A stretch of DNA of 64,000 bases, taken from Escherichia phage HY01. Shown one piece after another: positions 3,790 through 62,989 of the stretch. The stretch is from sequence record NC_027349.1; one strand, 5' to 3'. The notes beneath the pieces were generated by a model. It saw only the letters and a program-made list of their open reading frames with translations, had not been told where the DNA came from and did no database searches. A program made the position numbers and the translations under genes. Position 1 is the stretch's first letter; every line of letters begins with the position of its first letter.

Positions 3790-5320
3790 CTACTGTTATC
3801 CATTTACCATTAATCTGTACTTCATCATTTTCATTTACAATAATTGTATCACCATTTAGTTCGAGAGTAAACCACTCACCGTCTTCTTTTTCTTCAAACG
3901 CTTTTTCACCAAGAACCAATCCAGTGATTGCGCAAATATCAAATAGTTCTTTGTTTTTAAGCATATCAGCATATGACATACCCCAACTGTTGAGAACTTT
4001 ACCACGCAATGGATAACCACCGTGAAGTTCTTTATCACGAACATCAATAAGATAGCCGATAGCAGAATCACCCTCAGTCAAGAAAAGAGTAGTATCAGCA
4101 TCTTTACCGCAAAGATTCGCTTTAATATGTTTATGAACCTTAGCTTTAGAAGCCTTTTTAGCTGCTTTAGTTTCTGCTGCTTTTTCTGCCGCCAATTTAC
4201 GAGCCAAGGCAGCTTCAATAATTGGCATTAAAATTGCTTCATTATTTAAAATAGCGCGTGAAATCTTTTTAGCATCAAGCTGAATATGACTACGAATTTC
4301 ACCAAATGGAGAAGTCAAACGCTCTTTAGTTTGAGAATCAAATCGCATGTTTTTCATATCACGAACAAACATAACGATAGTCAAACATTCTTTAACCCGT
4401 GCTTTAGTTACATCAATTTTGAATTTACGTTTGATTTGCGGAATAAGGTCTTCACAAATATCATCCATAACACAGTCAATATGATGGCCACCATTCTTAG
4501 TATGAATGTTATTGACGTATGTTAATTGACGAAAACCATCCGGTGAACGACCAACCGCAATAGAGCAATTTTCCTGTTCTTGAACGATAGCATGCTCATC
4601 ATATTGGCGTGCGTATTTCTTAAAATTACCCTGAACCTTTTTACCATTAAAGGTAAATTGAATATCAGGATAAACTACTGCAAGTGTCTGGAGACGATCT
4701 AGTGTAATGTCAAGATAAACTTGGGACAGCTCATTAGTTTCAAATGACATAAAATCAGGAATGAAAGTAACACGAGTTCCTTTCCATTTTCCAGGAATAG
4801 TTTCCCATGATTTATTTTCCATGCCATTTGAACAACGAACTACAATATTATTTTGACCGTCGCCAGTTTCACCGACAAACATCACAGAAAAAATGTTTGT
4901 CAAACTAGAACCAACACCATTCATACCGCCGGTGACGCGTTCTTTATCATCACCGAAGTTACCACCTGCTTTTGGAATAGTCCACGCAGCAACAGGACCA
5001 GGAATTTCTTCGCCGGTAGGTGTTTTAACCATCGCTTGTGGAATACCGCGACCGTTATCTTCAACTGTTACTTGATTGTTTTTGATAGTAACATTAATTT
5101 TATTTGCGAATTTAAACTTAGTACGAATACCTTCATCTACTGAGTTATCGATAATTTCATCAATAAGCTTAACAAGACCAGGTACATACTGAACACTTTC
5201 CCATTTACCAAACAGAAAGCGCTCATGCATTTCATTAGCAGAAGAACCAATGTACATGCCGCTACGCTTTTTGATATGTTCAATATCGCTCAGAATTTTA
5301 ATTTCATTCTTAATCATCAC
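3767..5320 (-). CDS. 39: DNA topoisomerase II large subunit (GyrB-like ATPase)
   Basis: 517-aa ORF with GHKL ATPase motifs (IDNSVDE, DNGRGIP, GLHGVG-like). Confidence 0.93.
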   Translation of the reverse strand: MMIKNEIKILSDIEHIKKRSGMYIGSSANEMHERFLFGKWESVQYVPGLVKLIDEIIDNSVDEGIRTKFKFANKINVTIKNNQVTVEDNGRGIPQAMVKTPTGEEIPGPVAAWTIPKAGGNFGDDKERVTGGMNGVGSSLTNIFSVMFVGETGDGQNNIVVRCSNGMENKSWETIPGKWKGTRVTFIPDFMSFETNELSQVYLDITLDRLQTLAVVYPDIQFTFNGKKVQGNFKKYARQYDEHAIVQEQENCSIAVGRSPDGFRQLTYVNNIHTKNGGHHIDCVMDDICEDLIPQIKRKFKIDVTKARVKECLTIVMFVRDMKNMRFDSQTKERLTSPFGEIRSHIQLDAKKISRAILNNEAILMPIIEAALARKLAAEKAAETKAAKKASKAKVHKHIKANLCGKDADTTLFLTEGDSAIGYLIDVRDKELHGGYPLRGKVLNSWGMSYADMLKNKELFDICAITGLVLGEKAFEEKEDGEWFTLELNGDTIIVNENDEVQINGKWITVGELRKNL

Positions 5321-5370
5321 TTATCCTCGTTTGGTTTCGGGAATATTATACTCCGGTAATCATAAAGCTA

Positions 5371-5386
5371 AAGGCCCGAAGGCCTT
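5371..5386 (-). terminator. UUCG-tetraloop GC hairpin after 39.1
   Basis: AAGGCC-UUCG-GGCCUU in mRNA sense, followed by U-rich sequence. Confidence 0.55.
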
Positions 5387-5647
5387 TTATTTAAAACGAA
5401 TAGTCGAATCCTTGAAGAATAGTCCAGAACATACGGTTCCTTCTACTTTCTGCCCAGTAGGTCCAATAGCACGAAATCCAGTATGCTGGAAATCATTTTC
5501 AGAGCAACCGAACCAATTATATCCAGTGATTTCAATATTAGTAAAACCACTTGAAGACAAAACTTTGGTTGCATTATCAGCATCAGTACATCCTGCTAAA
5601 GACACTGCTAATACTAATGCCGCGATAGAACGATTAACATATTTCAT
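5387..5647 (-). CDS. 39.1: small lipoprotein-like protein
   Basis: 86 aa with signal peptide and lipobox-like LAGC; UUCG hairpin terminator directly after its stop. Confidence 0.55.
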   Translation of the reverse strand: MKYVNRSIAALVLAVSLAGCTDADNATKVLSSSGFTNIEITGYNWFGCSENDFQHTGFRAIGPTGQKVEGTVCSGLFFKDSTIRFK

Positions 5648-5649
5648 AA

Positions 5650-5826
5650 TTACCCTTTAAGTAAGTCGTAAAATCCACCGTTCACATGCTTAGGAGCGGA
5701 AACTAACCGAATAGCAATCCGATGACAATCAGGACATACATCAGTATCTCTTTCAGAAATTTTCTTGATTTTTTCGTATTCTTTTGCACAGTCTTTGGAT
5801 TGACATTTATAATCATAAAGAGGCAT
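5650..5826 (-). CDS. 39.2: zinc-ribbon protein (FmdB-like CxxC...CxxC)
   Basis: 58-aa ORF MPLYDYKCQSKDCAKEYEKIKKISERDTDVCPDCHR... translated by hand (below the ORF-track cutoff); coordinates approximate. Confidence 0.5.
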   Translation of the reverse strand: MPLYDYKCQSKDCAKEYEKIKKISERDTDVCPDCHRIAIRLVSAPKHVNGGFYDLLKG

Positions 5827-5828
5827 AA

Positions 5829-6260
5829 TTATTCCTTAAAGTGAGCTTTCAACATCTGATACAAGGACCATGCTTGTTCATTATTTTCAATAGTAACTTT
5901 CATTACCGGGAATTCAGATGGTTCAGTTACTGGTGCAGGGTCTTCCTGCTCTTCAGCAGCCTGATATGGATTTTCCACTTCATTAAAGAACTCGGCTTCG
6001 TTGCTAGAAAGCCAGATAAAGTTTTCGTCAATGACTGTACCTCGTGATGAATATCCAACTATGCCAGTAGATGTCACAATTTTAGTAGGACGCCCGTAAT
6101 AGTCAACATCTAAAATTTTAAAAGGTTCCATACCTAAACGCCGCGCATAGATTCCGTTATCAGTATGGTCTTTAATAAAATTTTCTTGAGCTTGTTTATT
6201 TTTGAATTGATACCATTTATTAACTTCAAATTTAATAGCCATTAATAAATTTCCTTCCAA
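5829..6260 (-). CDS. goF: GoF-like protein (mRNA metabolism modulator), assigned by position
   Basis: 143-aa ORF in the T4 goF position between 39.2 and cef. Confidence 0.5.
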
Positions 6261-8314: not shown

Positions 8315-8998
8315 TTATCGTTTTGTTGGAAGAGACAGAGGATCGCACTCTTCCTCTGATGGAGCATCTTCAAGACCCATAGCATATCGCAAAGCATACT
8401 TCATCATCAGGATGTCTTTCGCACAGTCATGAATAGAATTATGCGCAACAAATCCATCTAAAGTTCCCTTTGGAAGGGGGCATGTGGTCATATCACGAAC
8501 AAGCAGAAGTGCTTCAATTCTGGTACGAATATCACGCTGATTCCAGAATTTACATGGTTCTAACTTAAATGTGTCAAGCTCATTCTCAGATACACCATTA
8601 AGGCGTTGAATATCACGAATGAGATCGACTAAAATTGGAAAATCAAACGACATTCCACGGCACCAGCCTTGAGATTTCCAAGGATCGATATTATGTGCAT
8701 TGATGTAATCATTAAATTTTGCAATACCATCGATAGTGCTTACATCTTCATCTGATGGTGCAATATTTTTTCTAGCTTCAGGTGATTGATTTTTCCACCA
8801 TTCGATAGTGCTTTTAGTAAAAAGACGATGTCCTTTTTGGCTTTTTAAATCAAATTTGATTTTAATGCCACGTGAAACTAATTCATCAAATGTTTCAACT
8901 ACTTCTGGATTAGGGTCAAAGGCAATAACAGCCAAATCAATAACAGCTGCCTTTTCACCACTTCCCATTGTTTCAAAATCTATAATAAAATCAAACAT
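8315..8998 (-). CDS. dexA: exonuclease A (DnaQ-like 3'-5' exonuclease)
   Basis: 227 aa with DEDD-type exonuclease motifs (FDFETMG ... HNSIHDC). Confidence 0.88.
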   Translation of the reverse strand: MFDFIIDFETMGSGEKAAVIDLAVIAFDPNPEVVETFDELVSRGIKIKFDLKSQKGHRLFTKSTIEWWKNQSPEARKNIAPSDEDVSTIDGIAKFNDYINAHNIDPWKSQGWCRGMSFDFPILVDLIRDIQRLNGVSENELDTFKLEPCKFWNQRDIRTRIEALLLVRDMTTCPLPKGTLDGFVAHNSIHDCAKDILMMKYALRYAMGLEDAPSEEECDPLSLPTKR

Positions 8999-9273
8999 TA
9001 AATTTTCCTTGCTAAATCGCGAATTTGACCTACAGTATAGTCTTGAATATAAACTTTATTAATGGGCTCATCAATAAATTTTGCCACAGATTCAATGTCT
9101 TTTTGTATCTCTTCAAGACTGTATACTATCTTTGAAGCTTTTTCGCGAATAGTAATATTTTCAGGACCTGGATTTTCTTCAATGACATCTTTAACATTTG
9201 TTATAAGAGATTTAAACTGCCACCAACTTAATTCAATCATTAATAACCGCCTTATAAAGATAGCTAATTTCAC
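8998..9273 (-). CDS. dexA.1: hypothetical protein
   Basis: 91-aa ORF upstream of dexA. Confidence 0.45.
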   Translation of the reverse strand: MKLAIFIRRLLMIELSWWQFKSLITNVKDVIEENPGPENITIREKASKIVYSLEEIQKDIESVAKFIDEPINKVYIQDYTVGQIRDLARKI

Positions 9274-9493
9274 CTAAAATATAATCACTGATTGTAACAG
9301 TTTTTACTTCACCACAAAAGAATTCTAACGCAATTAAATCTCGTTCAATTTCTTCTAATTGAAGCATCAACTTACTAGATTCAGTTTTCACATTTTTGCG
9401 ATTTTTGCTATAAGCTATTTCATAAATTTCGCTTACTTTATCTTGAAGAAGATAAAACTGATCTTTAGTTATTTCCACGAATAGCTTCCTCAA
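9233..9493 (-). CDS. dexA.2: hypothetical protein
   Basis: 86-aa ORF. Confidence 0.45.
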   Translation of the reverse strand: MRKLFVEITKDQFYLLQDKVSEIYEIAYSKNRKNVKTESSKLMLQLEEIERDLIALEFFCGEVKTVTISDYILGEISYLYKAVIND

Positions 9494-9499
9494 ATTTAA

Positions 9500-10819
9500 T
9501 CATACATAAAATACATCATAACGACCACGGGTAACACCAACATAAAGAAGTTGTTGGGCCAATTCAGCATCTGCATAATGAATACAAGGCGTATAAATGA
9601 AAGCACGGTCTACAGACATACCCTGAGCTTTATGGAATGTTGATGCAGGAAGTGCTTTCACTTTACTGAACTGTGATTTAGCATCCCAAAAATCACTCCA
9701 AGGTGATTTTCCGCCTTTATTCCAGTTCTTATAAGTTTCTGCCGTTTTACCTAAAAATAGGTTAAACTTATATAGCTCTTCATCAGATGAAATTATTTTA
9801 ATCTTTTCACGATAATATTCATCATCGCCGTAAGTTTCTACTGTTAAATCCCAATGACGAATTAGATATTCTCCAGAAACACCACGAGCTTTAACAAACG
9901 TCGATGTATATTCTGCTTCTATAATACGAACTAATTGTCCGTTATTAAAAATAATTTCTGACACAGGCTTTCCATCAATTTTATATGTTTTAATTAATGG
10001 TTCCTGCATTACAATAATTTCACCGACAATAAAATCTTTATCAGTTTCAAAAATCTTTTTACGAATAATGCTATTTAACTTGTCAACAGATTTATTCGTA
10101 AATGCCATTACGCGATTTTCAAACAAATCATCTAAAGATTTGACGATTGAAAAATAATTTACCATAAAATCGCGTAAAGCGGTATCACCAGTAAATCCAC
10201 GTACTCCATGCCCGTCAACAATTTTATCATAAATCCACTTACCGTTACGAACGTCAGTAGCTACATCAATAATAGGAGCATTACTGCGTTTAACTTCAGT
10301 GAGTTCACACTGATAAAAATCTTTGTGTGTAAAGAATGGACTGATATAAGCAGTGTTTTCTCCTGGGTCAACAGGTCTAATTTGCTTATTATCCCCTATT
10401 CCAATTATAGTACACCAAGGTGGAATAGTTGAAAGCAGAATTTTAAATAGCTTTCTATCATACATTGACACTTCATCGCAGATTAATACCCTGCATTTAG
10501 CTAAATCTGGTACTTCCTTCTGTTCAAAAAGAACATTTTCTTCATATGTTACCGGGTTAATTTTAAGAATGCTGTGAATAGTACTCGCTTCTTTCCCCGA
10601 CAGTTTTGAAAGAATCTTTTTAGCTGCATGTGTAGGAGCTGCTAAAATAATACCAGTTTCACCCGTAGATATTAAAGCTTCAATGATGAACTTAGTAAGA
10701 GTAGTCTTACCAGTACCAGCAGGTCCATTAATAGTTACATGATGTTTCTTTTCTTTAATAGCCCTCATAACGATGTTAAAGGCATTTTTCTGGCCTTCTG
10801 TCAAATCATCAAATGTCAT
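9500..10819 (-). CDS. dda: Dda DNA helicase (SF1B)
   Basis: 439 aa with Walker A GPAGTGKTT and Walker B; size matches T4 Dda. Confidence 0.93.
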   Translation of the reverse strand: MTFDDLTEGQKNAFNIVMRAIKEKKHHVTINGPAGTGKTTLTKFIIEALISTGETGIILAAPTHAAKKILSKLSGKEASTIHSILKINPVTYEENVLFEQKEVPDLAKCRVLICDEVSMYDRKLFKILLSTIPPWCTIIGIGDNKQIRPVDPGENTAYISPFFTHKDFYQCELTEVKRSNAPIIDVATDVRNGKWIYDKIVDGHGVRGFTGDTALRDFMVNYFSIVKSLDDLFENRVMAFTNKSVDKLNSIIRKKIFETDKDFIVGEIIVMQEPLIKTYKIDGKPVSEIIFNNGQLVRIIEAEYTSTFVKARGVSGEYLIRHWDLTVETYGDDEYYREKIKIISSDEELYKFNLFLGKTAETYKNWNKGGKSPWSDFWDAKSQFSKVKALPASTFHKAQGMSVDRAFIYTPCIHYADAELAQQLLYVGVTRGRYDVFYV

Positions 10820-57896: not shown

Positions 57897-58084
57897 TATT
57901 CTTCTACATGTTGTTTACGACCTTTCCTATCAATGAAGGTATATTCAACGAATGTTCCAATATAGTCTTTATCTACATCATGAGGACTATTAATTGGGCA
58001 TTTAGTACGGCAAATGCGTTTCCATTGACGAATAATTTCCACTTTGTTTTTAGGATCAAACGGATGCGGGCAATGTACTTTCAT
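57872..58084 (-). CDS. small Cys/His-rich protein
   Basis: 70-aa ORF. Confidence 0.35.
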   Translation of the reverse strand: MKVHCPHPFDPKNKVEIIRQWKRICRTKCPINSPHDVDKDYIGTFVEYTFIDRKGRKQHVEEYCLKVTWL

Positions 58085-58535
58085 AATCCACCACTATTAA
58101 ATCAATATCAGGAGTAAACATGTCGATTAATTTAGAAACCTTATCCCAATCACCGCCAGCAATACCACAACCTATGCGTGGAATGTAAATTACTGGTTTA
58201 AACAGAAGGGTCTCTGCCTGTAGATTTAATTCTATCATGCAGTTTACTAAAGCACCATAATCAAGATTAGGACCCGGTTCGTATTGCGTATACAGGTTAT
58301 AGCATATACCAAATCCCGTAGGACTATGTTTAAAAACAATAGACATATCGCCTAATTTATCGCGAGAACCGTACTCGGTAGTAGTTTTATCTATTTCTAA
58401 AATTTTAGGATAGGCCCTCGCTAATTGACCCGCTACACCTGAACCCATAGTATGAAAGCAGTTGCACCCGTGCGCAATAATATTACCTTGAAGAAATAGG
58501 GCGACAATATCGCCCTTGATATATTTTACAATCAT
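58056..58535 (-). CDS. macro-domain protein (ADP-ribose binding / ADP-ribosylhydrolase-like)
   Basis: 159 aa with macro-like motifs GDIVALFLQGNIIAHGCNCFHTMGSGVAG and IPRIGCGIAGGDW. Confidence 0.55.
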   Translation of the reverse strand: MIVKYIKGDIVALFLQGNIIAHGCNCFHTMGSGVAGQLARAYPKILEIDKTTTEYGSRDKLGDMSIVFKHSPTGFGICYNLYTQYEPGPNLDYGALVNCMIELNLQAETLLFKPVIYIPRIGCGIAGGDWDKVSKLIDMFTPDIDLIVVDYESTLPASV

Positions 58536-58873
58536 CTAGTACTCAATCCTCGATTATAAGAATCTACCAAACGGTCAACCATTGAATGACAAGCGGCTTT
58601 ATCTTTCTCCTCCGCAACTGAACATTCTAAGGTATTCCACTTTTTAGCATATCGTTTTAATAAAGTATCGTTCTTGTATCTACTTGATTTATCTCTTTCT
58701 CCGTCTTTATATGCATATATTAATTTCTGCGCAAATTCAGCTTGACATGCTTTATTTTTCCCACAATAATCCGCGGCAGTACGGTTTACATACTCTCTAA
58801 TTTCAGTGTATGATGTATTTGCTAACGCAGAAAATGAAATTAATCCTACACATAAAACCAAAATTTTAGTCAT
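58532..58873 (-). CDS. secreted Cys-containing protein
   Basis: 113 aa with N-terminal signal peptide MTKILVLCVGLISFSALA. Confidence 0.45.
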   Translation of the reverse strand: MTKILVLCVGLISFSALANTSYTEIREYVNRTAADYCGKNKACQAEFAQKLIYAYKDGERDKSSRYKNDTLLKRYAKKWNTLECSVAEEKDKAACHSMVDRLVDSYNRGLSTR

Positions 58874-59411
58874 TTACTATTTCCAACAGTTTATTATTTT
58901 TAAGGTAGTTAGCCTTTTCTAGGACTTCAGAAGCATATTTAGAACCTGCTTTAACATTCCATCCCGAATTATAAGAGGATATTGCCTTTCTTATATCGCC
59001 CTTATGTATATTTAACCAATAAGAAAGTTCAATGTACGCCCAGGAAGCTGAATTGGACCGTTTATTCAACATTCTTTTTATTTCAGCATCGGTCATATTA
59101 TAACCAAGTTCCTTAACTCTTGCTCGCATGGTCGGCAAATAATTTTGGAACATTCCATAGGCATGATGCTTTGGTTTAGATTTTAAATTAACTCCGGCAG
59201 AGCTTTCTTGCCATAAAATAGCAGCCATTATATGACCTAATCCACTCTTGTGGATATTTTTGTGTGTTTTATATTTTCCATCCTTAGAAAATTGTTCCCC
59301 GAATTGATATGCGTAACGCATGTTATCGAGTTGGACATTACTGAAAGTATGCTCGGAGCTATGTGCCATCATTGAAATGGCCAATAGACCAGCGAGTAGT
59401 GCTTTTCTCAT
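58866..59411 (-). CDS. secreted lytic transglycosylase-like protein (SLT domain)
   Basis: 181 aa with signal peptide and SLT motifs (LWQESS, AYGMFQ, SYNSG). Confidence 0.6.
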   Translation of the reverse strand: MRKALLAGLLAISMMAHSSEHTFSNVQLDNMRYAYQFGEQFSKDGKYKTHKNIHKSGLGHIMAAILWQESSAGVNLKSKPKHHAYGMFQNYLPTMRARVKELGYNMTDAEIKRMLNKRSNSASWAYIELSYWLNIHKGDIRKAISSYNSGWNVKAGSKYASEVLEKANYLKNNKLLEIVND

Positions 59412-59418
59412 GCTTACC

Positions 59419-59880
59419 TCATTGAGTTTTAATTACTGCTTTAGAAGCCTTTCCTGGTAAACGACGACTGTTAATAATTGCCATCCTGCACTGAAGCGAC
59501 GGGTCTTTGAACTTCGCATTAGGTTTACAAACTGTAAATCCAAGCCAAAGATTTCCATCTGTGATTTCTAAACGCCCAGGACGATATTCAACCCCATCAA
59601 TAAAATCCTCGTCAATGTCAGGACGCGGAGGCATACTCAGGAATTCATTAACTTCTAAAACATGGTCTTTTATTTTGTGGAATAATTCAAAAACATATGT
59701 CTCATCAATCTCCCGTTGAATTGCACGATCAAGAAGATGTTGAGAATATTTTAGATGAAACGATGAGACCCCTGCTGCTTTTGATGCCTCACGAATCTCA
59801 TTGTTAATTTGACGAAACTCCGACTCAAAGTGACGACGGAGCTTATTTCGACGGATAAAAACTTCTGTGTTGATAGTCAT
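59419..59880 (-). CDS. regB: RegB endoribonuclease
   Basis: 153 aa; matches T4 RegB as recalled. Confidence 0.88.
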   Translation of the reverse strand: MTINTEVFIRRNKLRRHFESEFRQINNEIREASKAAGVSSFHLKYSQHLLDRAIQREIDETYVFELFHKIKDHVLEVNEFLSMPPRPDIDEDFIDGVEYRPGRLEITDGNLWLGFTVCKPNAKFKDPSLQCRMAIINSRRLPGKASKAVIKTQ

Positions 59881-60484: not shown

Positions 60485-60698
60485 ATTCTACTTCCTCACC
60501 TGTTCCCAAATCATATTCAACTAAACGAATAGGCTCATGAATGCCATATCCTTGAACAGAAATTTCTGTCGTAGGATAAATTCCATTAATATCACCCATG
60601 TTCCACGCTTCATTAAATTGCTGTTCGCCTGAATTACTAAACCACTCGGCGAAAGCATTTAGCACATCTTTAGAACCTTCAATAATTATCTTTGCCAT
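60477..60698 (-). CDS. hypothetical small acidic protein
   Basis: 73-aa ORF. Confidence 0.4.
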   Translation of the reverse strand: MAKIIIEGSKDVLNAFAEWFSNSGEQQFNEAWNMGDINGIYPTTEISVQGYGIHEPIRLVEYDLGTGEEVEYD

Positions 60699-61060
60699 TA
60701 CAAACTCTCAGTAAAGGTACGAGCGATAACGTCGCGCTGCTGTTCCGGAGTCAGAGAGTTAAAGCGAACTGCATATCCGGATACACGGATGGTCAGCTGC
60801 GGATATTTTTCCGGATGCTTAACTGCATCTTCCAGAGTTTCACGACGCAGAACGTTTACGTTCAGGTGTTGACCACCCTCAATTTTAACTGTAGGCTGTG
60901 TTTCAATTTCAATTTCACGGGCATGCAAACCATAGAAAATTTCTGGGTCTACAAAAGAGTCCTCTTTAAAAGTTTTAGAGACAATAATTCGTGCTTGAAT
61001 ACCGTCTTCAAAATAAATAGTACCTTTATGCGTGCCTTCAAGAATTTGATATGCTTTCAT
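60698..61060 (-). CDS. autonomous glycyl-radical cofactor (GrcA/YfiD-like)
   Basis: 120 aa; C-terminal about 60 residues [61 protein letters not shown] match E. coli GrcA as recalled. Confidence 0.8.
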
Positions 61061-61070
61061 ATAACCCCTC

Positions 61071-61451
61071 TCAATTAGAAAATAAATTTATCCAAGATTG
61101 CTCTTTAATTAAAAATGGCTCAGAATCATATGCCATTAAACTTTGGGTAATTAGTCCTTTAAAAGGCCCATCAATAAATTCCATGGTAAAATATGGAATT
61201 TTATTCATTAATCTTGCATTAGGAGCAGTGCATAAAACTCTGCATCCTTTGAATACACCTTTTTGTAATTTGTATTGCTTAGGATAAAATTCACTCAAGA
61301 CGTTGTTATTTGCCAAAATTTCAAAATGATTCACCAATTTATTTTTAATAGTTTTTGGCGAAAAATAAAGATATTCGAAAAGTTGCGTGTCTGTCATCAT
61401 TGCATTCCGATTATGAAAAACTGTGGACGAGTAATACCACCAATGCAACAT
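61071..61451 (-). CDS. hypothetical protein
   Basis: 126-aa ORF (start probably internal). Confidence 0.35.
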
Positions 61452-61984
61452 TTACTATTGCAACAGTGGTGCACAGTTTCAATATGAATATCGTAAATTT
61501 TATCCATATCAGGAGATTTAACAGGCTCATCAATTATATACAAAATCCGCGAAAGCGATAAACCTCTGAACTTGCTTCCTTTATTACCGATAAAACTACG
61601 GACAGAATCGGTAAATAAGCGGAATCGAATATCATCGCCAGAATAACGAGAAAATTCTTTTTTAATGTGGCCCGCAGAAATTTTAGCGTAAGCTGAAGTA
61701 TTAGAAAGAACAATAACTGTTCCACCATCATACAGCCAATTAGCAGCAAAGTTAGTCACAGCAGTTGATTTACCGGATTGTCTGCCACCATCTAATCGAA
61801 GTGTGCAATACTGCTTGAGTAAGTCTTCAAATGGTGGGATATAATCGTTTTTACAAATTTCTTCTACTCTAGCATCAGAATGGTGTGTAAAAGCATTCAT
61901 CAGGGATAGATAAGGACCAGTTAAAAATGTTCTCATTTTATTCTCTCTAAATTTGGGCCATTCCATGGCGCATGAATTGTCCAT
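61397..61984 (-). CDS. P-loop NTPase-like protein
   Basis: 195-aa ORF with Walker A GGRQSGKST and a Cys cluster HHCCNSKCC; start may be the internal Met near 61936. Confidence 0.45.
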   Translation of the reverse strand: MDNSCAMEWPKFRENKMRTFLTGPYLSLMNAFTHHSDARVEEICKNDYIPPFEDLLKQYCTLRLDGGRQSGKSTAVTNFAANWLYDGGTVIVLSNTSAYAKISAGHIKKEFSRYSGDDIRFRLFTDSVRSFIGNKGSKFRGLSLSRILYIIDEPVKSPDMDKIYDIHIETVHHCCNSKCCIGGITRPQFFIIGMQ

Positions 61985-62089
61985 TTCTGTATTTACCCAT
62001 TACCGCACTTGGGCTCGACCTTATTACAGGTTGGCGGGAATCCCTCACAGAATCATGAGGTCCAGGTTGTTCCCATATTTCTTATTTGC

Positions 62090-62563
62090 TTATTTGAATG
62101 ATTTAACGTACTGAATAGAACCTTTACTATTTACAAAGGCAATTTTACCATTTTTATTGTACATAGTAGCAGTACGCTGATAACCATAAGTTTGTTTACC
62201 AGATTGATAACCAACTAATGCGAAATTATCTTCGCCCATTTTATTCTGTTTAGCGCGGATGCGTTCATGACCGTGTGCCATAAGAACCTTAGCATCACCA
62301 GTTGAAATTGATCTACGAGTTTTTTCATCTTCAACTGTATTAACAAAGTCGTCAAATGAATCAAATTTAGCATGGGATTTATTATACAGTTTTCCATCTA
62401 CTGCATAATTATATCCCTGTACATCCATCTCAACTTCTGTACCATCATCCAATACAGCAGTGATTTTTTGACCTTTTTTAAATTTCAAAAGATCAGTAAA
62501 AGATTCAGCAATAATTTGAGAATTAATAGCTGCTTCAGTGATAAATTCTTGATATGTTTTCAT
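62090..62563 (-). CDS. capsid-targeted internal protein (IP family), distinct from T4 IPII/IPIII
   Basis: 157 aa beginning MKTYQEFITEA (capsid targeting sequence consensus); between denV and e. Confidence 0.65.
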   Translation of the reverse strand: MKTYQEFITEAAINSQIIAESFTDLLKFKKGQKITAVLDDGTEVEMDVQGYNYAVDGKLYNKSHAKFDSFDDFVNTVEDEKTRRSISTGDAKVLMAHGHERIRAKQNKMGEDNFALVGYQSGKQTYGYQRTATMYNKNGKIAFVNSKGSIQYVKSFK

Positions 62564-62572
62564 ATGTTTCCT

Positions 62573-62989
62573 TTAAATGTAAATATTTTTGCCGTAATAC
62601 TTGTACCAGTGTGGCTTCATTAAAATTTTTTTATCGAGTCGTTGTTGACTCAATTTAATAGCTGATTTGCATGGATTATAATCATTTTTCCATTCTGCTG
62701 GAATATCGCTGATGTCAGGAACTTCAGTATCTTTTATACTAAACCCACGTTTTAAGCATTCCATTATAATGTCTGATTGACGCTTTCGCAAAAATTCTAA
62801 CTTGTCGTAAAAGAACGTAACATGACCAGAACCTAAAATAAACTCGGAAGATATTTTAAAATCTTTAACCCGCTTACCATTTGCCACGTGTTTACGAACT
62901 ATACCAAAAACGCGTGGCAATTCACGGTATTCTGCGATTAAATGTTGATCAGCAAGTTCAGATACTAAAGTCAAATTAATACGAGTCAT
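62573..62989 (-). CDS. denV: endonuclease V (pyrimidine dimer DNA glycosylase)
   Basis: 138 aa [17 protein letters not shown]...; matches T4 endo V family. Confidence 0.9.

Follow-up and report, generated by a model that had tools for sequence, protein, structure and literature searches.

We analysed a window of 64,000 nucleotides from Escherichia phage HY01 (NC_027349.1), that is, the whole 64-kb stretch of DNA under study, and focus here on a 195-aa open reading frame (ORF) at 61397..61984 on the minus strand and on a conserved RNA element that lies immediately upstream of it. The DNA around the ORF (window 61000-62600) is 100% identical to that of Escherichia phage PEC04 (KR233165.1; Tequatrovirus) and 96-98% identical to that of many other relatives, and the ORF corresponds to PEC04_0014 in the GenBank record of PEC04. 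Its last 179 residues are 94% identical to T4 Vs.8 (NP_049732.1), and it occupies the same genomic slot in the T4 reference gene order denV - vs.8 - vs.7 - vs.6 (GrcA-like) - vs.5 - vs.4 - vs.3 - regB - vs.1 - vs. The comparison with T4 vs.7 and vs.8, proposed in a first-pass annotation of this DNA, thus identifies the ORF as the ortholog of phage T4 vs.8, because T4 Vs.8 matches over these 179 residues and the T4 gene order agrees. As a family, vs.8 is already annotated in T4 and uncharacterised; what is new here is its proposed placement as a free-standing terminase-type ASCE ATPase domain, a corrected start codon, and the dismissal of its Cys cluster and of a RegB label.

Coding extent of vs.8

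The ORF exists as the first-pass annotation reported it, with the motifs GGRQSGKST, ILYIIDE and HHCCNSKCC, but its start is most likely misplaced. As most likely translated, the vs.8 coding sequence runs 61397..61936 (minus strand, as for every feature given below) and encodes 179 aa (MRTFLTGPYL...FFIIGMQ*), beginning at Met17 of the 195-aa ORF. Nearly all Vs.8 homologs are 173-181 aa long and begin at the Met equivalent to this residue, and the best PHROGs match of Vs.8 (phrog_1488, unknown function, 1.5e-78) spans residues 19-195 of the 195-aa ORF. In 12 of 33 distinct related loci, some of them Tequatrovirus-like with a vs.8 starting MRTFLTG as in the window, an in-frame stop is located 0-4 codons upstream of the Met at 61936. 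A purine-rich GAGAG resembling a ribosome-binding site is found at 61943-61947, 7-11 nt upstream of the same Met, and the ATG at 61984 falls within AUGGAC, a conserved motif of the upstream RNA that reads AGG or AAGGAC in other genera. Because of these homolog starts, upstream stops, the GAGAG site and the non-ATG motif elsewhere, the start is most likely at 61936, and the ATG at 61984 is very unlikely to serve as one. The 16 extra codons (MDNSCAMEWPKFRENK; 61937..61984) are most likely untranslated, representing the ribosome-binding site together with the RNA element's 3′ module.

The T4 reference model of Vs.8, 219 aa long, is read through the upstream RNA element (L002:4254-4913, L002 being the T4 locus). 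This model is probably 40 codons too long, its extension being translated RNA element, and the real T4 vs.8 start is at 64792. An 8-nt indel between T4 and PEC04 or the window changes the reading frame of the upstream 48 nt, and the 219-aa model arose because this indel happens to leave a different frame open across the element; in the window and in most relatives, the N-terminal extension is closed or out of frame.

Fold and conserved motifs of Vs.8

Residue numbers of Vs.8 features refer to the 179-aa protein. An AlphaFold2 model built with a 19-sequence alignment (predicted local distance difference test score, pLDDT, 81.3; predicted template modelling score, pTM, 0.82) contains two N-terminal helices followed by a β-α-β core of five strands alternating with helices, with strand 45-48 and helix 56-69 flanking the P-loop and strand 131-135 carrying Walker B; the sole low-confidence stretch, with pLDDT <50, is the Cys-cluster loop at residues 160-167. 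When the model was compared with the PDB by Foldseek, all matches were RecA-like ATPases, with query-normalised template modelling (TM) scores of 0.45-0.53. They comprise helicases, including the SLFN11 helicase domain (E 7.6e-5), DSH9, RadD, RecD, UvsW and flavivirus NS3, the packaging ATPases of Thermus phage P74-26 (7ks4, 4zni) and phi29 (gp16; 5hd9), and the small subunit of poxvirus VETF. Among predicted viral structures, the nearest non-orthologs are orphan proteins of 140-170 aa from T4-like phages of Proteus, Vibrio, Aeromonas, Acinetobacter and Stenotrophomonas and from jumbo phages; comparable orphans of ~150-180 aa are found in other large myoviruses. With Walker A on a strand-loop-helix, a Walker B of hhhhD plus Glu, and a RecA-like sheet, Vs.8 is predicted to be a single-domain RecA-like P-loop protein of the ASCE class. 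The first-pass annotation had called the ORF P-loop NTPase-like and made this depend on a P-loop fold in a predicted structure; such a fold is present, and the reading is borne out by the five-stranded α/β domain, the RecA-like Foldseek matches and the invariant Walker motifs.

A word-indexed search recovered 28 Vs.8 homologs, those with a source name coming from T4-like phages that infect enterobacteria. An exhaustive profile search of 1.84 billion protein cluster representatives returned 55 at E<=0.001 and 33 at E<=1e-10, nearly all of 130-185 aa. A tblastn search of 50,697 phage records located vs.8 in 1008, with one match each except for one record with two. For the remote family members, genomic context gave no further clue.

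In an alignment of 21 homologs, down to 40% identity, the invariant positions are D-G-G-R-Q-S-G-K, I-I-x-E-P, R113, R124 and a terminal F..G.Q. Walker A, G50-G-R52-Q-S-G-K56-S-T58 (61763..61789), is invariant (n=21) and carries a terminase-type P-loop arginine. Walker B, I131-L-Y-I-I-D136-E137 (61526..61546), ends in the putative catalytic Glu; its Asp is nearly invariant, and E137 is invariant in the close family. Thirteen residues before this Glu stands the invariant Arg-Gly of F123-R124-G125 (61562..61570), a candidate trans arginine finger. The protein ends with the C-terminal strand F-F-I-I-G-M-Q (61400..61420; strand 172-176), the last of the sheet, in which F173, G177 and Q179 are invariant. 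These motifs are largely retained in remote members, and the occurrence of Walker A together with Walker B is far beyond chance.

Relationship of Vs.8 to the large terminase

Profile-profile comparison (hhalign) of a 38-member Vs.8 alignment with residues 1-360 of T4 gp17 aligned the family with gp17 143-265 at a probability of 94.6% (E 7e-8) and brought Walker A, R-G and Walker B into register. GGRQSGKST falls on gp17 SRQLGKTT, F-R124-G on V-R245-G, Walker B on MIYIDE, and FRGLSLSRILYIIDEP on VRGNSFAMIYIDEC. A weak second PHROGs match is to phrog_2 (terminase large subunit; E 4e-6), and sub-threshold Pfam matches recur among the 38 members, namely AAA_14 in 23, Terminase_6N in 16 and AAA_30 in nine, Terminase_6N remaining below its curated cut-off (14.9 vs 22 bits; best member E 1.4e-4). 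A PADLOC scan of Vs.8 gave nothing above threshold. Some annotation pipelines call vs.8 “terminase large subunit”.

Judged from these alignments, Vs.8 appears to be a homolog of the large terminase's ATPase subdomain I. The two share the ASCE fold, an x-R-Q-x-G-K-[ST] P-loop, an hhhhDE Walker B and a conserved R-G 11-13 residues ahead of the catalytic Glu. However, Vs.8 has ~180 aa as compared with ~610, and lacks the lid subdomain and the RNase H-like nuclease: it ends 42 residues past Walker B, and the gp17 alignment, covering ~120 residues, stops at residue 265 of 610. It also has a family-specific N-terminal helix pair (YLSLMNAF). Moreover, vs.8 lies in an early accessory region and not beside terS or portal genes in all genera examined, with T4 gene 17 located 32 kb away. 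In SF1/SF2 helicases (RecD, RadD, UvsW, SLFN11), which give the best Foldseek matches, domain 1 shares motifs I and II with Vs.8; yet Vs.8 has a single RecA-like domain and no motif VI arginine, and no significant sequence match to these helicases was found.

Proposed function of Vs.8 and alternatives

We consider it probable, at roughly 0.6, that Vs.8 is an early-acting, free-standing terminase-type ASCE ATPase, oligomeric or partnered, and dispensable in the laboratory. Mg-ATP would be bound through K56/S57, R52 would touch the γ-phosphate, like the terminase P-loop arginine, and E137 would activate water, while R124 would complete the site of a neighbouring subunit, leading to ATP hydrolysis as a homo-oligomer or with a partner. 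An oligomer or partner would be required because the lone domain has no cis arginine finger. In the P74-26 terminase, the γ-phosphate is contacted by the P-loop arginine, and another arginine is supplied in trans by the adjacent subunit (PMC5389665); by its position, R124 is a candidate equivalent of this TerL trans arginine finger. The gene sits inside a polycistronic early region, and no promoter or terminator signals above chance were found near it. Its start overlapping the vs.8 stop (ATGA; CAATGATGA), vs.7 (109 aa; 61071..61400) appears to be translationally coupled to vs.8. Vs.8 would thus be made early, co-transcribed with denV and an internal-protein gene and coupled in translation to vs.7, and would serve as an accessory ATPase on nucleic acid or protein, dispensable for growth on laboratory E. 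coli. A “hypothetical protein” of about a thousand sequenced T4-like phages would thereby become a testable enzyme, made early and built around a minimal terminase-motor ATP site; if an oligomer with a trans arginine is indeed formed, Vs.8 would be among the smallest natural ASCE ATPases and a convenient model.

Several observations weigh against this assignment. TM-scores to solved structures are only ~0.5, none of the Pfam or NCBIfam models reaches its cut-off in the Vs.8 family, and sequence and profile searches of the PDB gave insignificant matches only (FtsK-like TraB/coupling protein, FtsY). Assignment to the subfamily depends largely on a single profile-profile alignment, made with one gp17 sequence, the steps involving the arginine finger and the oligomer are drawn by analogy alone, and some remote family members have D-C in place of the Walker B D-E. 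The dispensability of the protein is affected as well. In CRISPRi-ART, T4 vs.8 scored “Not Fit”, that is, no fitness cost (PMC11879866 supplement, files 15 and 25), but the guides, at T4 64887-64937, lie on the RNA element, ~100 nt from the real start. As the guides target the mis-annotated start and not the real ribosome-binding site, the knock-down was possibly missed, and “Not Fit” may not report on the Vs.8 protein and tells more about the RNA element. Beyond the CRISPRi-ART tables, our literature search on vs.8 returned no data, its name retrieving clinical “vs. 8” text.

The homology to the gp17 ATPase core, with active-site residues preserved, would also be expected of a decoy or regulator acting through a terminase-like surface, which could occupy terminase sensors (Avs-type STAND NTPases) or modulate gp16/gp17 assembly before packaging. 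Avs1-3 reportedly sense terminase, as is said to have been found by Gao et al. in 2022. The location of vs.8 in an early accessory region is consistent with this possibility, as is its dispensability in the laboratory host; the gene stands beside those of internal proteins that are injected, a group that includes known anti-defence factors (PMC4122927). If true, it would represent a new kind of counter-defence. Nevertheless, we regard it as unlikely: an active enzyme would be expected to keep the catalytic Glu, the Lys and both arginines strictly invariant, as is seen, just ~120 residues align to gp17, and neither PADLOC nor Pfam gave anything specific.

Slightly less likely still is that Vs.8 is half of a helicase or translocase, contributing motifs I-III to a nucleotide site that a partner such as Vs.7 completes while binding nucleic acid. 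The top PDB matches are domain 1 of SF1/SF2 helicases, the RecD-like AAA_30 is among the recurring sub-threshold matches (9/38), and the terminal G-x-Q resembles, in our own reading, SF1 motif III; the overlap of vs.7 with the vs.8 stop and the co-occurrence of both genes in several genera would also suit such a pair. Vs.7 is, however, a poor candidate for the second half. It has merely 109 aa, shows no similarity to gp17, and is unannotated behind vs.8 in phiR1-RT and PEi26. Its structure prediction is of mixed α/β type with low confidence (pLDDT 61), too poor for a structure search.

The first-pass annotation had left open “kinase or ATPase”, of which the ATPase part agrees with the hhhhDE Walker B and the terminase profile homology. 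A small-molecule, nucleotide or polynucleotide kinase is suggested by the Walker A motif, the small size of the protein and sub-threshold matches to thymidine kinase and CobU, each in 1/38 members, but is improbable. A Walker B Asp-Glu is typical of ASCE ATPases and not of the kinase-GTPase class, and this pair is invariant in Vs.8; a lid segment is lacking, no kinase is found among the top 50 structural matches, and profile homology points to terminase.

The HHCCNSKCC cluster (residues 156-164; 61445..61471), presented by the first-pass annotation as a feature of the protein, packs four Cys and two His into nine residues, three of the Cys recurring among close T-even relatives, where it is partly kept (QHCCRASC, QYCYNSKCC); elsewhere, it is replaced by unrelated sequence of variable length. 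That this cluster makes Vs.8 metal- or redox-dependent and so defines its function is the least probable of the alternatives, since its ligand residues are not conserved across the family, being absent in Tegunavirus, Kanagawavirus, Dhakavirus, Karamvirus and remote members, and the region is indel-rich with low model confidence. A Pfam conotoxin match (Toxin_19) is below cut-off and was set aside as an artefact of the Cys pattern.

A structured RNA element upstream of vs.8

More surprising than the placement of Vs.8 is the pseudoknotted RNA element between the internal-protein gene and vs.8 (61954..62081, ~128 nt; covariance-model match 129.9 bits), which is single-copy in the window and overlaps the reported ORF by 31 nt (61954-61984). 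Upstream of vs.8, nucleotide-level conservation extends over ~130 nt between genera whose Vs.8 proteins are just ~40% identical, and the RNA core is 73-95% identical where vs.8 coding DNA is 58-60% identical. In T4, the copy at NC_000866 ~64818-64945 (L002:4819-4946) is annotated as coding sequence.

Six helices are formed: P1 (5′ strand 62070-62074, 3′ strand 62036-62040), Px (62063-62065 and 61987-61989), P2 (62055-62060 and 62043-62048), P3 (62032-62034 and 61997-61999), P4 (62028-62031 and 62018-62021) and P5 (61966-61969 and 61957-61960). Bulged between P4 and P3 is an 18-nt strand, CGAGCCCAAGUGCGGUAA (62000..62017), that varies at only three positions among 24 viral contigs and 16 of the 18 metagenome contigs, copies in non-T4 contexts and circularly permuted ones included. 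The covariance model was built from 29 sequences, and the following pair counts were taken on the model-fitted alignment and so lean towards the structure: both-side changes are seen in 5/5 pairs of P1 (GGGAA:UUCCC, AAAGG:CCUUU, AAAGC:GCUUU, AAGCU:AGCUU), in 4/4 pairs of P3 and in 4/5 pairs of Px, which crosses P1. Px is CUG:CAG in the window and CCG:CGG, CCUG:CAGG, CUCGA:UCGAG, CACAC:GUGUG, CGC:GCG or ACCA:UGGU elsewhere. The covariation score is 0.233 as compared with 0.081 in shuffles, of which 0/500 reach 0.233, and with 0.02-0.09 when the partners are slid. An RNA transcribed in the vs.8 sense is in keeping with G-U wobbles and with a double change from C-G to U-A seen within Tequatrovirus. 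The single-sequence fold energy of the element is unexceptional (z 0.56). A D-arm-like CCC:GGG pairing inside the invariant strand was rejected, as it is contradicted by the P3 covariation.

The covariance model finds the element on the vs.8 strand in every T4-like locus, where it usually starts right behind the stop codon of the upstream gene and ends ~15-25 nt before the next ATG. Searched for exactly, the core occurs once per contig in 24 viral contigs (a looser pattern raises this to 29) and is matched in 18 metagenome contigs; the matches in two of the latter, L037 and L048, resemble chance hits and were excluded from the analysis. Six further matches, scattered over unrelated phyla, occur in bacterial genomes, a number that fits our rough chance estimate for 18 specified bases. 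In Kanagawavirus-type phages (L004:2216-2476, L017, L022, L052), two diverged copies stand in tandem, the second with a shorter bulge strand (C-AG-YCCGCG-RCGGUAA) and a covarying P4, which is ACCU/AGGU otherwise and GCCU/AGGC here.

Copies outside T4-like phages keep the invariant strand and its two flanking helices. On a 138-kb contig, P1 and Px are kept with other sequences (GGGG:CCCC, CCAGC:GCUGG), and two copies show circular permutation, AGGU being found at their 5′ end and ACCU ~100 nt downstream. Two are located in or beside tRNA gene clusters, and one follows an endolysin gene and is itself followed by an intrinsic terminator. Divergent or circularly permuted copies of the core inside or beside tRNA gene arrays are represented by the non-T4 phage contigs L039 (1254-1348 and 1905-2841) and L050 (6811-6975, with tRNAs at 4678-5992 and 8414-10710); L039 also contains a near-threshold group I intron match (4365-5207; 47 vs 50 bits). 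No vs.8 homolog was found near the non-T4 copies, which argues that the RNA is an entity of its own and merely the leader of vs.8 in T4-like phages.

A search of Rfam 15 gave no match overlapping the element at E<=10 in the window or at E<=1 in seven related loci, a tRNA search at the element gave none, the T4 RNAs rnaC and rnaD are unrelated to it, and no description of it was found in the searchable literature. Short-string resemblances to twister, the 16S 530 loop, 4.5S RNA and ToxI have no model support and were set aside. Its strand order (P1-5′, second helix 5′, hairpin, P1-3′, hairpin, joining strand, second helix 3′) is the nested double pseudoknot of ribozymes of the HDV (hepatitis delta virus) type, further shared features being its start right after the upstream stop and, in most genera, a C-A-N-A before the closing strand. 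Unlike these ribozymes, the element has no P1.1, the P1 3′ strand running straight into P3; its P1 has 5 bp as compared with 6-7, its most conserved sequence sits in the equivalent of the dispensable P4, and the T4/PEC04 type has an A at the position of the catalytic C (UAAAUA, no C). With P1.1 and, in the T4/PEC04 type, the catalytic C missing, we did not assign the element to this class. The PeSLs of T4-type phages are cassettes of an early promoter and a simple stem-loop (PMC4122927). Like them, the element is a conserved non-coding sequence in a hyperplastic region with a 3′ module duplicated at gene-cassette insertions, this 3′ hairpin module (GCCANGGAANGGC) being repeated ahead of inserted genes in Marfavirus, VR5 and one other contig; unlike them, it lacks a promoter match, comprises six helices, with a pseudoknot among them, and carries the invariant 18-nt strand.

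The odds are about even, in our estimate, that this is an undescribed class of structured RNA of ~125-150 nt with six helices, HDV-like strand order and the invariant strand C-N-AGCCCAAG-Y-G-Y-GGUAA, present in every T4-like enterobacterial locus examined. The element could act as a self-cleaving separator of the upstream message and vs.8, as a ligand- or protein-binding leader, or as an independent small RNA. If truly undescribed, it would be a complex conserved fold overlooked in the most thoroughly studied phage through having been taken for coding sequence.

Neighbouring genes and their annotation

The slot of vs.8, with denV or an internal-protein gene upstream, then vs.7 or other small genes, and then regB, is kept in the six groups examined (Tegunavirus, Kanagawavirus, Marfavirus, Dhakavirus, Karamvirus and Klebsiella phage vB_Kp_M198). 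Homologs of vs.7 follow vs.8 in Dhakavirus, Karamvirus and Marfavirus; Vs.7 has a conserved core (GPFKG...). A Pfam scan of the window proteins gave no match for vs.7, and its homologs carry the precomputed Pfam label PF26834. A possible identity of Vs.7 as a piece of terminase was rejected, given its lack of similarity to gp17.

The first-pass annotation had placed the ORF next to a GrcA-like gene, whereas vs.7 in fact lies between vs.8 and that gene, vs.6 (60698-61060), which encodes a GrcA-like autonomous glycyl-radical protein (Gly_radical, E 2e-18; RVSGYAVRF motif). A functional link between the two was rejected: vs.6 provides no functional clue to vs.8 because it is missing from most genera that keep vs.8.

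A “RegB domain-containing endoribonuclease” label is found in GenBank on PEC04_0014, 0015, 0019 and 0021, that is, on vs.8, vs.7, vs.3 and vs.1, unrelated neighbours none of which resembles RegB, and it recurs in many other GenBank records of relatives. A relationship of the Vs.8 family to the window RegB (59419-59880) was rejected, the hhalign probability being 0.09%, and the label on vs.8 is unfounded. Three annotations are thus to be corrected, namely the start codon in the window, the 219-aa model in T4 and the propagated “RegB endoribonuclease” label.

Upstream, the gene between denV and vs.8 (62090-62563) encodes an internal virion protein (DUF7412, phrog_3155) with the capsid-targeting start MKTYQEFITEA; in T4, by contrast, no internal-protein gene occupies this position. 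The T4 genes ipII and ipIII, located between denV and e, are missing in the window, where denV adjoins e. Further downstream of vs.8, 58866-59411 encodes the 181-aa Vs.1 ortholog, which begins with a signal-peptide-like hydrophobic stretch, and 58056-58535 encodes a Tk.4-like protein, credited in the T4 record with an A1pp (macro-domain) phosphatase motif.

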